This document shows, piece after piece, positions 15,838-42,085 of a DNA stretch of 64,000 nucleotides. The notes below the pieces were generated by a model. The model saw only the letters and a list, made by a program, of their open reading frames with translations. It was not told the origin of the DNA and searched no databases. Position 1 is the stretch's first letter. Each line of letters starts with the position of its first letter. Both the position numbers and the translations under genes were made by a program. Source of the stretch: Eledone cirrhosa (Eukaryota); the NCBI GenBank assembly GCA_964016885.1, contig CAXHJY010000838.1, forward strand, positions 54,599 through 118,598, given 5' to 3'.

Positions 15838-16130
15838 ATAAAAAAATTGTCGGATTAATTGAAAACATGACATATATTTGAACAACATTGAGGTGAATCC
15901 CTATTTCTTTATATAAGAGACTATGGAATGAACTGCCTGTCGAGTTTCTATGGTATTTCAATAGCTGTGTTTTGTAAGCATCTTCAGGTGCCATATTCCA
16001 TAGAGTTAGGATTGGTAAGAATAATAGGCTGAAAGCTAAAATATTGATCCAGTCTTCAGGTGCGTTTACTAGTCTAGTTACCTTGTGCTGAGAACATGTA
16101 CAGCTTGAAGAATCAATACTAAGCACTTGA
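15838..16130 (-). mobile_element. Penelope-like 3' terminus with two degenerate hammerhead cores, abutting (TA)n
   Basis: Minus strand has GCACCTGAAGA twice (CTGAAGA at 16053-16059 and 15981-15987). The second is followed by GAAAC (15944-15948) and enclosed by a perfect 9-bp inverted repeat CTATGGAAT/ATTCCATAG. The 3' end abuts (TA)n at about 15790-15835. Confidence 0.5.
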
Positions 16131-16548
16131 TTAATTGTGATTCGAACTTCTTTTTTTTTTTTTTCTTTCTTTCTTATATTTATTTATTGGTCCTGATAAT
16201 AGGCTCAACTCTTCACATATTCAAGCTTCAATAAATACACATTTTCTAAAACTAAATAACTAAATTTAAAATTTAGTTGTTATAAAAGAAGCCATCTTTC
16301 ATCATCATTATCATTATCATTTTACATTCATTTTTCATGCTGGCATGGGTTGGATGGGTTGTCACAGTCAAGACTAGACTGGGTGAAAAATGTATTTTGC
16401 GTGTACTTCAAATCTATGCATGGTTGGATGGCTTTCCTAATGCCAATCACTTTACAGAGTCTACTACTTTAGCATAACATTTAATAAATTTCAGATAGAA
16501 ATAATGATTTCTGATTTAGGCACAGGGTCAACAAATAATAATAATAAT

Positions 16549-17250
16549 AGGAAAGAATCACTGGACAGATTTTACAGGCAAAACCAACCGGCAAGAGACC
16601 CAGGTGTTGGCTTTAAGAGACATCTTCACCCACTTATTCTTAGGAAGGTCATGGGAGAAGAGTCCTCAGTCACACCTAGTGGGTCCAGTCAAAAGCAACT
16701 GTCTCCAATTGATTCAGCTGAATTCTCAAGCGAGACCTACTGAGTTCATGGATGTAATCCAACCATCTTACTCAGGGTCTTCCCCCGGGTCTCCTGCCAG
16801 TTGGTTTTGCCCATAAAATTTGTCCAGCAATTCCTTCCTGAGACATCTTAACCACATGTCAGTAGTATCAAAGCTGTGATCTCTCAATTTGAAAAACCAA
16901 CAGCTCTATCTGGAGCAACTCTCTGATCTCCAAGCTATGCACTATGGAGTAACATTAATCCAAAGATACCTTGGAGGAACCCCATTTCGGCTGCTTTTCT
17001 ATCCAATTCTTTCAGTTATTACCAAAGATTTATGACCATAAGTAAGGGTTGGTACAAATAGTGAATTGAAGATAGTGAGTTTGGCTTTTACATCTACCTC
17101 TCTTCTTCTGATGACTAAATGCTGAAGCTGACTGCACCAGATCCTGCAATTCTTGCATCTAATTCAGCTTCTTACCTACCATCACTCATGAACTTGGCCA
17201 CAAGATACTTGAAATTCTTCAGGGGAATTTCACTTACATGTAGAGTTCAC
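16549..17250 (-). mobile_element. degenerate Rex3/Expander-like RTE (minus), preceded by a short plus-strand fragment of the same family
   Basis: The reverse complement of about 16620-17250 is similar to 8853-9165 and extends further 5'. 16549-16605 is a plus-strand piece (ERITGQILQAKPTGKRPR). Confidence 0.8.
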
Positions 17251-18615
17251 TGTATTGAAGAGACCTCACCATAAACAATTTAAGTTACCATTTCTATTAC
17301 ATAAAACCCACCACCACCACCAAATCCTATCATTGACCATTTTCAGTATTGTCTTAGAATTACAATATACAAAATACAGCTCAGATTTTATTTCTCAGAC
17401 ATACAAAATAAAATAGAGAATAGTGTTGTAAGGAAGAAAAAAATTTAGATTGGGGAAAAAATATCTAGTGTGAATGAACAGAAACTTTTCCCTTTTGATA
17501 CAAAAACACCAGAAAGCACACATGGTTCTATGATACAAAGCAGTTTATTTTAAAATGTTTATATATATCTATAAACATTCCATTAAGATTTTATGTAAGA
17601 GCCTTTGTTACATTTAAAACACCAGTTTAATAATGAGAATGCTAGTTATATTATTAAATTCTTCAACATTCTTGATTATTTTGAAAATGATTTGAAAATT
17701 ATAAGCAGCGTTGTTTATTAGAAGTATGGTAATGAAAGGGTTAATTCTAACAATAATGAACATTATATTCTAAATGCTGTTATCTTCTGCAATTTCAAAA
17801 GCAAACTTTGAAATACTGGGTACAAAATAATTTGCTGTAATCAAAAATATGAAAAGATTTTATTTAGATAGTGAAACAAATATAAGAGTTTACATCAGCA
17901 GTAGAAACTACCCAATTTAGAGCATTAGGTATAATCAAGGTCTTGTTTATTATAACCTCCTACACCACCCAAACCATTAGTAATAGCAGCATTGAAAACT
18001 GATAAGGCTTTTTATGCATCTGCAAACTGAGCAAACTGCATATTTTGTGCCAGTGGTAATAGACGTCACTTCTAAAATTAATCTGAAGACAACAGCTTCT
18101 TAGCAGACATCTTAAAATGGTTGTTTATCCGTTTTTCTATGAATTGTATTGTATTGAACAAGTTGAAGGAAAAACAAAGCAATATAGTTTTTAGATTCTC
18201 TATTTTGATGTTCAATAGAAGCAATGAGTTGGGGGAAACAATACCTAGCTTAATTAATTAGTTCATCTTAATATTCATGAAAAATCTAAAAATAGCTACT
18301 TGCATAATTGTCCAAACTAAACCATCCTGTTCATTTATTCATTTCTCTATCAGAGAGACAGTATGTGCTTTCAGCACAGTGATTACAGATGTGGCAGTGG
18401 TAATGTGGGGAAAATAATCACTCACACTATTAAAAATCTTCTAAGAGCCAATTGTTATTTCTAGGGAATTGTGTAAGAAGTACTAGACTAAATGGTTGTT
18501 GTCCATCATTTACTAAAAACATAGCAAGTTTGTTTGTTAGGTTTAAACCTAATGAGTTCTTAAAAATTTATTACAGTAACAACTTCTTGTTGTGCAGCCT
18601 CGGGTCAGCACTGAT

Positions 18616-18780
18616 CAGAGCCTATGAGAGGGAGGGGTTCCGCCGGTCTTTGTTCCAGCGCCCAAGAGCTCAGAAGAGCCCACAGCAACCATGCAACATT
18701 CATTTTGAGAAAAATCTTTGCCTGCTTCAGGCCCCAAAGGGGTCTTGTACCACCTTGCAAAATTTCTCTTGGCGGCCCTG
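18616..18780. mobile_element. hAT-type MITE with 8-bp TSD
   Basis: Ends CAGAGCC ... GGCCCTG; exact TSD GCACTGAT at 18608-18615 and 18781-18788. Confidence 0.85.
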
Positions 18781-18791
18781 GCACTGATCAA

Positions 18792-40526: not shown

Positions 40527-40854
40527 CCCTTTAGCATTTAAACCAGCCATATCCGGCTAAAATTCTCTCACCTCTTTTTATTCAAACCGGCTGTAACCGG
40601 CCCCTCATACTGATGCTAAGGTATTGTTCTCAAAATAAATAATATCAAAATCTCTTAGCTTCGATATTATGTGAGGTAAAGCCTTTATCATAAAAATACA
40701 ATCGTATATATAAAGTAATTGTTTCTACTTTTGGCACAAGGCCAGCAATTACCCACTACATTACTTGTACTTTATTTTATCGACCCCGTAAGGATGAAAG
40801 GCAAAGTTAACCTCGGCGGGATTTGAACTCAAAAGTAATGTAAATGCTAAAGGG
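40527..40854 (-). mobile_element. piggyBac-like MITE containing a nested S1 SINE fragment (~40720-40831)
   Basis: TTAA flanks and TIRs. The SINE piece is bounded by the direct repeat AAAGTAAT (40712-40719, 40832-40839). Confidence 0.9.
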
Positions 40855-41055
40855 TTAACATGTATGTGCGACCATTGGTTTTTGGGTCCAGTTATGACCA
40901 CCACTGTATAGTGGTGGAGACATTTCCAATATGAAGGGCCAGTTCGGAAGTGCTTCCTCCTATATACAGTGTTGACCATAACTGGACCTTGAAACCAATG
41001 GTTGCACATACATGTTAAGTGTAAGAAAAATTATGTACACTATATGTTTATGTTT

Positions 41056-41686
41056 ATCATCATCATTGAACGTCCATCTTCCACGCTAGCATGGGTTAGA
41101 CAGGAATTGTCCCACTTGAGGCAAGATTGATCGGGTGGCTGTGTCTCACTCATACAGAACTATCTGGCAGGTTTTCTATGGCTGGATGCCCTTCCTAACA
41201 CCAACCACATTTACACATACATATATATATATATCATCATCATCATCATCGTTTAACGTCCATCTTCCACGCTAGCATGGGTCTGGATGGAAATTGTCCC
41301 ACTTGAGGCAAGATTGGTTGTCATGTTCAAGACTGTCTGGCGGGTTTTCTACGGCTGGATGCCTTTCCTAACACTAACCACATTTACAGTGTGGACTGGG
41401 AGGTTTTTACCGTGTTACCTACATGGCCACATTAGAGCGTGGACTGTTTTTTTTTTGTCGTGACACCTACACAACCTCATTTATTTAGGACTGGATGTTG
41501 TGGTACCAACATAACTTGACATCGAAATGAGTGGTGTAGATGGTGGTGGGGGGTAGTGGGACCGGAGTGTATTTTGGTTAAGAGGTGCCTACTGACTGTA
41601 GGTTTCGCTTTGTACTTAGGCAAGGCCGGTCTTCTGTATTACTGCGTAGCACCAAAGATCTCGGTCCAGTGACATTGTCTTGGAGT
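41056..41686 (-). mobile_element. two RTE family B 3' fragments (41056-41215 and 41233-41686)
   Basis: Reverse complement matches 61608-62069 (SKTMSLDRDLW... plus UTR and GAT tail). The longer copy has TA on both sides. Confidence 0.88.
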
Positions 41687-41922
41687 ATATATATATATAT
41701 ATATATAGTGTGTGTGTATTTTTTTAATTCTTTTACTAGTTTCAGTCATTTGACTGCAGCCATGCAACAACAATATGGCTGACTGAATAAGTTGGTACTA
41801 AACCCAACAAAACCTAAATATCTGTGTATGCCACTGTTGTAGCTTATTATATATATACATATATATTCGTAACTGTACTCCTTGTTGTTGTTATTTACTT
41901 TTCCAATATATATATATATATA

Positions 41923-42085
41923 GTTCAAGGAAACAACAAGCAGAGGTACAAATGTCTTCTTAGTTTTACGCTTTATATGGAAAAGAGGAAAGAAAGTTCG
42001 ACGTGTCAGGCTTTAGCCCTTCTTCAGGAGTACAAAAATAGAGACAGGATCACAAAAGATAGATACAGAAAATAAAAGGTAGACC
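41923..42085 (-). mobile_element. Penelope-like 3' end with mutated hammerhead, abutting (TA)n
   Basis: Minus strand CTGAAGA-A-GGGC-TAAA-GCCT-GACAC-GTC (about 42000-42027) is the typical PLE motif CTGAAGAAGGGN..NCCCGAAACGTC with GAAAC changed to GACAC. Confidence 0.65.

Follow-up and report, generated by a model that had tools for sequence, protein, structure and literature searches.

Hammerhead motifs beside TA repeats in Eledone cirrhosa: probable termini of truncated Penelope-like elements

Hammerhead modules in the window

We analysed 64,000 nucleotides (nt) of Eledone cirrhosa DNA (contig CAXHJY010000838.1, positions 54,599 to 118,598, forward strand). This stretch is called the window and is numbered from its first base. 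The genome assembly is 3.0 Gb and AT-rich. A sequence-only reading of the window had proposed four modules, each comprising a hammerhead ribozyme core and a short tail beside a TA tract. Here, we describe these modules and the probable origin of three of them in Penelope-like elements (PLEs). The relevant features are as follows.

15836..16140, minus strand: module 1, an imperfect hairpin with two GCACCTGAAGA words, adjoining (TA)n at 15789-15835; no valid hammerhead, and copies were not found
24679..26079, plus strand: 3' 1.4 kb (3' untranslated region (UTR) and terminal repeat) of a 5'-truncated PLE, Hydra-type by motif, of the module 2 family; no open reading frame (ORF) remains in the window
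25985..26044, plus strand: module 2, a type I hammerhead with CTGACGA at 25995-26001, GAAA at 26023-26026, triplet GTA and predicted cleavage after 26033
26080..26255, no strand: (TA)n-type tract adjoining module 2 at its short 3' end; the same end point occurs in 27 of 30 unselected copies
26628..40512, no strand: TA-rich array of 13.9 kb, housing module 3, two 3' fragments of long interspersed nuclear elements (LINEs) plus one short interspersed nuclear element (SINE)
28304..28437, minus strand: module 3, a 134-nt stub of a second Hydra-type PLE, with a hammerhead at 28387-28437, a long tail and its 5' end at the family hot spot
41922..42097, minus strand: module 4, the 3' end of an older PLE, Neptune-type by motif, with a minimal hammerhead at 41996-42032, GACA at 42004-42007 for GAAA, and an end in TA at about 41907-41921

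Hammerheads were sought on both strands using a structure-aware descriptor, ordered CUGAnGA, stem II, GAAA, stem III, NUH, stem I. By structure, module 2 is a complete type I hammerhead; 46 nt separate the end of the GTA triplet (26033) from the (TA)n at 26080. Module 3 is also a complete type I hammerhead (28393-28431, minus strand), its stems measuring 6 bp (I), 3 bp (II) and 4 bp (III). Its core lies at 28425-28431, cleavage is predicted after 28393 and the tail finishes in (TA)n at 28304. The ribozyme fold has an energy of -5.3 kcal/mol, against a minimum free energy of -5.6 kcal/mol, and there is a compensatory change in stem I between module 3 subfamilies. Module 4 (core layout 42000-42027, minus strand) has a stem I of only 2 bp and lacks the full set of an intact CUGAnGA box, an intact GAAA box and three stems. 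Because GACA replaces GAAA, it was recovered only with one mismatch allowed. As the sequence-only reading had stated, tails of 35-85 nt abut TA.

Minimum free energies of the modules were not better than those of shuffled sequences (z -0.31 to 1.17). Therefore, folding energy is no evidence by itself. When the whole window was compared with Rfam at E values up to 5, no hammerhead family was among the best 150 of 886 matches; TA-repeat matches to microRNA models dominated. The modules had also been expected to be masked as simple repeat. This is true of module 3, which Tandem Repeats Finder absorbs into the 26628-40512 array, and of no other module.

Parent elements of the modules

Modules 2, 3 and 4 are repeated in the genome. 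A DNA search with module 2 returned 1487 candidates; the 40 scored were 96-100% identical over 343 nt, and the 41-nt family core has 684 exact copies. The 40-nt core of module 3 has 4072 exact copies, compared with 0 for the control; a DNA search with this module, which passes over very common words, had returned none. For module 4 there were 2671 candidates, and the 40 scored had ~88-94% identity over the module. Hence, the multi-copy homologues that had been anticipated exist for three modules and were not found for module 1.

Next to the terminal repeats are the remains of coding PLEs, as had been suggested. Window positions 24679-26101, interrupted by a SINE-like insert of ~180 nt at about 25477-25658, match the 3' UTR downstream of an ORF in locus L087 (94.6% and 96.2% identity). 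This ORF, like that of the module 3 family in locus L231, encodes a reverse transcriptase (RT) plus, at the C terminus, a GIY-YIG endonuclease in a single frame. The module 3 parent ORF was also located in locus L071. The parent proteins of modules 2 and 3 are ~45% identical to each other (39-47% across the comparisons). Modules 2 and 3 are therefore diverged termini of related elements rather than convergent inventions, and the independent convergence proposed earlier is not supported for them; only module 4 comes from another PLE lineage.

Both families have SDKT, that is, DKT in place of DKG, and an N-terminal RWR motif rather than RWK. Alignment identified a CxCx5C linker together with endonuclease CxxC and CxH motifs, and no CCHH. 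DKT, the CxCx5C linker, CxxC and CxH form the signature of the Hydra clade (PMC8557442, section 11). Hydra PLEs carry canonical, easily detected hammerheads and almost all families target (TA)n (Craig et al. 2021, PMC8557442). Consistent with this, the module 2 and module 3 families each have a structurally canonical hammerhead in the terminal repeat and are inserted into (TA)n. The same article's supplement includes Hydra-1_Obim, an octopus family that prefers (TA)n and bears a hammerhead. By motif, modules 2 and 3 derive from Hydra-clade PLEs with a C-terminal endonuclease.

Module 4 has a different ancestry. Decayed RT or GIY-YIG remnants lie upstream of the ribozyme, on the same strand, in 8 of 20 long family copies, and the linker in these decayed parents is Cx4CxxC. 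The combination of RT, Cx2-5CxxC linker and C-terminal GIY-YIG is thus present in pieces. By these motifs, the parent is a Neptune-type PLE of a lineage distinct from that of modules 2 and 3.

The damaged box of module 4 is a family trait. A pattern search that left the altered base of the second box open (n=36) found GACA 31 times, GATA 3 times, and GAGA and GAAA once each. Among fetched copies, GACA is present in 40 of 52; GAAA is present in 2 of the long copies. A14 is a conserved base of the hammerhead core, and most ribozyme copies of this family are therefore probably inactive. Judged from these copies, a catalytically damaged ribozyme apparently did not keep the family from spreading, which would be genomic support for cleavage being dispensable. 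The family bears on the purpose of PLE hammerheads.

A fifth family (loci L123-L140) was represented by 18 matches from 74 candidates scored. It matches Rfam RF00163 (Hammerhead_1) over the cut-off. Several of its copies have 5' ends near a hairpin ~45 nt upstream.

Element ends and insertion into TA repeats

The genome was sampled as 60 evenly spaced 10-kb stretches (599,600 nt in total). Strict hammerhead matches numbered 51, compared with 2, 0, 0, 0 and 1 in five local shuffles of the sample; two 310-nt tandem arrays supply 16 of these matches as individual units. The scale is considerable, at ~1 hammerhead motif per 12 kb. The window itself holds 2 intact hammerheads and 1 degenerate one in 64 kb, short of the one per ~7 kb first estimated. 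Tracts of (TA)5 or longer occupy 23% of window bases and 5% of genome-sample bases. Collapsing arrays and removing matches too near a stretch end left 37 hammerheads. For 31 of these, (TA)5 lies within 250 nt downstream, compared with 72 of 474 CTGANGA words without a ribozyme fold and 16.7% of background positions. The Fisher p value of 4e-18 is overstated because family copies are not independent. The predicted enrichment of hammerheads next to (TA)n is thus borne out.

The families end at fixed points. For the first 30 core matches of the module 2 family, 27 copies end at +50 to +58, 2 end at +147 and 1 continues into the ORF body; TA-type repeat lies beyond both end points. Counts for the module 3 family cover 93 of the first 100 copies listed, out of 4072 exact. 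There are 47 short and 43 long 3' ends, 3 copies continue into the ORF body, and (TA)4 is no more than 110 nt away in 90 of the 93. Inverted pairs in this family combine one long and one short arm in 23 of 25 cases, and in 12 of 12 for pairs less than 70 nt apart. The fifth family also ends at TA, at +44 to +47 (10 copies), at +146 to +149 (7 copies) and elsewhere (1 copy). For the module 4 family, (TA)4 is within 82 nt in 17 of 30 copies chosen by core alone.

The biochemistry of a PLE from Anolis offers a framework. Its protein cuts AT-rich DNA on both strands, reverse transcription begins at two internal RNA sites bracketing the tail, and the element inserts equally well with a dead ribozyme (PMC11167929). 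By analogy, two fixed ends per family and the predominance of long/short inverted pairs would fit this mechanism.

We conclude that modules 2, 3 and 4 are very probably the terminal repeats (type I hammerhead motif and short tail ending in (TA)n) of 5'-truncated copies from three PLE families. The link to RT and GIY-YIG ORFs, the pair of fixed 3' ends that families 2 and 3 each show, the TA at these ends and the head-to-head pairs of long and short arms are directly seen. The copies were likely placed by the element's GIY-YIG endonuclease, which would cut TA repeats, and by its RT, which would start at either of two internal RNA sites. As in the Anolis element (Frangieh 2024), both target strands would be cut and extended, with the two start sites yielding the short end and the tailed end. 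We propose that the commonest product of the module 3 family would be a short complementary DNA (cDNA) reaching no further than the RNA 5' end, just upstream of the ribozyme. Insertion probably does not require cleavage by the ribozyme. A young family with base-precise ends supports the model of two start sites and two strands in vivo.

Several observations weigh against this conclusion. The L087 and L231 ORFs each contain one in-frame stop and no intact ORF was seen. Pfam gave GIY-YIG matches for the Hydra-type proteins at E 0.017 and E 0.0086, neither of which reached the cut-off, and no RVT_1 match. Clade names were assigned from motifs and visual comparison with the PMC8557442 supplement, and the module 4 family parents are heavily decayed. 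Target-site duplications are unreadable inside TA. Finally, of 26 SINE ends, 10 have (TA)5 at a distance of 30 nt or less, against a background of 2.8%, and TA adjoins LINE 3' ends within the window. Hammerhead elements are not unique in their contact with TA. Therefore, part of the association may be a general property of the genome.

The 5' hot spot of the module 3 family

The 5' starts of the 93 module 3 family copies are not evenly spread. Briefly, 37 lie 0-7 nt upstream of CUGAUGA (14 at -5), 44 copies extend more than 150 nt and 12 fall between. The window copy begins at the hot spot. A TATA box, TATAAATACCA, is found at -35 to -37, ~30 nt before the hot spot, and is invariant across three subfamilies with differing flanks. 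Its position therefore predicts a transcription start at about -5 or -6. In 5 of 7 copies starting at -6, a small number, the element's C is replaced by G, which is what a copied cap would give. In contigs of run X21, depth falls sharply upstream of the family core, and over the ORF it is lower by a factor of about a thousand; this is depth, not copy number.

These features suggest, at a little less than an even chance, that the stubs could be strong-stop-like cDNAs ending at the predicted RNA 5' end. A fuller account, somewhat less likely than not, can be drawn. The commonest insertion of the family would be a strong-stop-like cDNA, primed at both target ends from two internal start sites near the transcript 5' end, with copying halted at the cap, which would lie 5-6 nt upstream of the hammerhead. 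This would leave thousands of stubs and head-to-head palindromes. A jump of the cDNA to the 3' repeat copy would build a pseudo-long terminal repeat (pLTR) in retrovirus-like fashion, and the module 4 family would have spread with its damaged ribozyme. Whether short copies end at the transcription start thus bears on pLTR formation. Previous work noted a pLTR with a TATA box, and also palindromic junctions, which it put down to self-priming (Arkhipova 2013, PMC3846280). In open-licence PMC and bioRxiv literature, we found no paper applying the term strong-stop to PLEs.

RT might instead stall on reaching the ribozyme's last helix, or stem I might begin with a splice acceptor (CAG), as in Drosophila virilis Penelope; either would yield a similar peak with no transcription start. 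This is a serious, if tentative, alternative. Stem I has its 5' edge at the hot spot, and the three subfamilies retain CAG at -7 to -5. In D. virilis, an intron end was mapped to the start of helix I (Cervera 2014). Moreover, fold-back junctions near the core also occur in other families that have no obvious TATA box so placed. Conversely, the invariant TATAAATACCA and the G for C at -6 count against stalling and splicing, and a constant upstream exon was not seen at the junctions. The module 2 family has no 5' peak: no more than 3 of its 30 copies stop 10 nt or less from the core. This counts against the alternative, as that family also bears a hammerhead, and it also counts against strong-stop-like products.

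The fold-back junctions of other hammerhead families were seen in a random sample, at loci L155, L156, L188 and L198, no more than ~8 nt from the CUGAnGA core. The 5' hot spot may therefore extend beyond the module 3 family.

Origin of the TA tracts

TA tracts could have expanded after insertion, from AT-rich element ends or by RT slippage, with no targeting involved. We consider this unlikely. In its favour, both end points of families 2 and 3 coincide with short internal TA-like words of the element, and SINE and LINE ends are likewise close to TA. However, stubs are flanked by TA on both sides and, for module 3, lie inside long arrays. The length of the TA varies, whereas the end points are base-precise. 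In addition, (TA)n preference is recorded for Hydra and Naiad PLEs across several phyla (PMC8557442). Insertion into existing TA repeats is the reading we favour.

Tandem arrays and retrozymes

The sequence-only reading also raised retrozymes. That the short modules are retrozymes or SINE-like elements, amplifying via their own circular RNAs and borrowing only PLE enzymes, is very unlikely: the genome does contain true tandem hammerhead arrays, and run X21 gives depths of 1-2 million for stubs and 1-2 thousand for the ORF body (again, not copy number), but each of the three valid modules runs colinear with a PLE 3' UTR, none in the window is tandem, and stub 5' junctions vary between copies, as repeated independent truncation predicts and a single master copy does not. 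Non-LTR retrozymes have at least 2 tandem non-coding hammerhead units; the modules in the window occur singly and are linked to elements that encode proteins.

Tandem units occur elsewhere in three forms, each of which could speak for amplification through circular RNA. The 310-nt arrays are at L146 (C1:165.0 Mb) and L166 (C3:190.0 Mb), where 5 and 11 units were seen; these are retrozyme-like. At L235-L236 (C1:83679777-83699017), at least 10 tandem 1.08-kb units of the module 3 family (3' UTR, ribozyme, tail and TA) are followed by an ORF-bearing copy in opposite orientation. In run X21, many contigs join about 1557 to about 1483 of L059:1481-1559, suggesting tandem units of ~75 nt around the module 3 family ribozyme.

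Comparison with known elements

The overall architecture is that of known PLE termini (PMC8557442, PMC4209133, PMC11167929). Families 2 and 3 share with the Hydra clade, including Hydra-1_Obim, an RT with C-terminal GIY-YIG, the DKT, CxCx5C and CxxC/CxH motifs, a near-3' type I hammerhead, (TA)n, a tail and inverted repeats. They differ in having RWR where the known clade has RWK, and thousands of short stubs. Their hammerhead sequences differ from that listed for Hydra-1_Obim. The module 2 family element exceeds the usual length of less than 3 kb because its 3' UTR is ~2.2 kb (all comparisons, PMC8557442). Compared with Neptune-type PLEs in the same source, the module 4 family is known here from decayed pieces, with its clade assigned by motif.

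Cervera 2014 described dispersed single hammerheads as deriving from truncated PLEs. Our data agree in this, in the many unrelated families per genome and in the opposite-strand pairs. An extra base before stem II and, for module 4, a palindromic minimal stem III are also shared. In contrast, module 3, with its 4-bp stem III, could fold as a monomer, and for module 4 the change in the GAAA box is family-wide. The density here extrapolates to roughly 250,000 motifs, compared with 2,000-9,000 per genome in that study, which used a different descriptor.

The Poseidon element PAc of Anolis resembles our families in its two internal RT start sites around the tail, extension of both strands and AT-rich targets. 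Its ribozyme activity is dispensable in vitro (Frangieh et al. 2024, PMC11167929). PAc belongs to another clade and has a tail of 30-40 nt, whereas tails here are 70-100 nt; products ending at the transcription start are not described in the accessible portion of that article. Animal non-LTR retrozymes (Li et al. 2026, bioRxiv 10.64898/2026.07.22.740005) likewise have type I hammerheads and kinship with PLE terminal repeats. They are tandem hammerhead units without coding sequence, unlike the window modules.

A new, hidden ribozyme-microsatellite system, as first envisaged, is not supported: Craig 2021 had described hammerheads together with (TA)n for Hydra PLEs, and Cervera 2014 dispersed single hammerheads of truncated PLEs. 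Hammerhead-bearing PLEs preferring (TA)n are already published; what is likely new here is further families, and module 3 family stubs stopping at the likely transcription start.

Other observations

Of the four hammerheads originally proposed, modules 2 and 3 stand, as does module 4 in its GACA-degenerate form. Module 1 does not. The descriptor, strict or relaxed, found no match there despite two CTGAAGA words. Using block definitions from PMC10085705, we found no arrangement in which stems I and II both reach 3 bp directly beside the core boxes, whatever the block order, including type SGC and non-circular permutations, on either strand. Module 1 was rejected as a hammerhead on these grounds. 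A DNA search of the genome returned 1 candidate, module 1 itself, and a 25-mer search allowing 1 mismatch found no other copy. The 6 matches of a 14-mer search were all unrelated, and nhmmer over 1.28 Mb of fetched loci gave a best E of 9.7 and no copy. Module 1 is either a chance arrangement or too decayed for assignment. A loose hammerhead match at 2157-2258 (minus strand), with stems of 2 bp, was also taken as chance.

Directly downstream of the module 2 family element at L087 lies a second PLE (L087:2012-4128, minus strand) with RVT_1, GIY-YIG and a CxxxxCxxC linker. It does not match the modules, and a terminal ribozyme was not identified in it.

Inside the TA-rich array, positions 31746-32748 and 34648-35650 are an exact 1003-nt duplication with a period of 2902 nt. 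This is either a recent tandem duplication or an assembly artefact. Each copy contains a 594-nt LINE 3' fragment, and a longer copy of the same LINE RT is found at 58784-60301. Minisatellites of 44 nt (18 copies) and 32 nt (19 copies) occupy 1-808 and 7350-7970, respectively.

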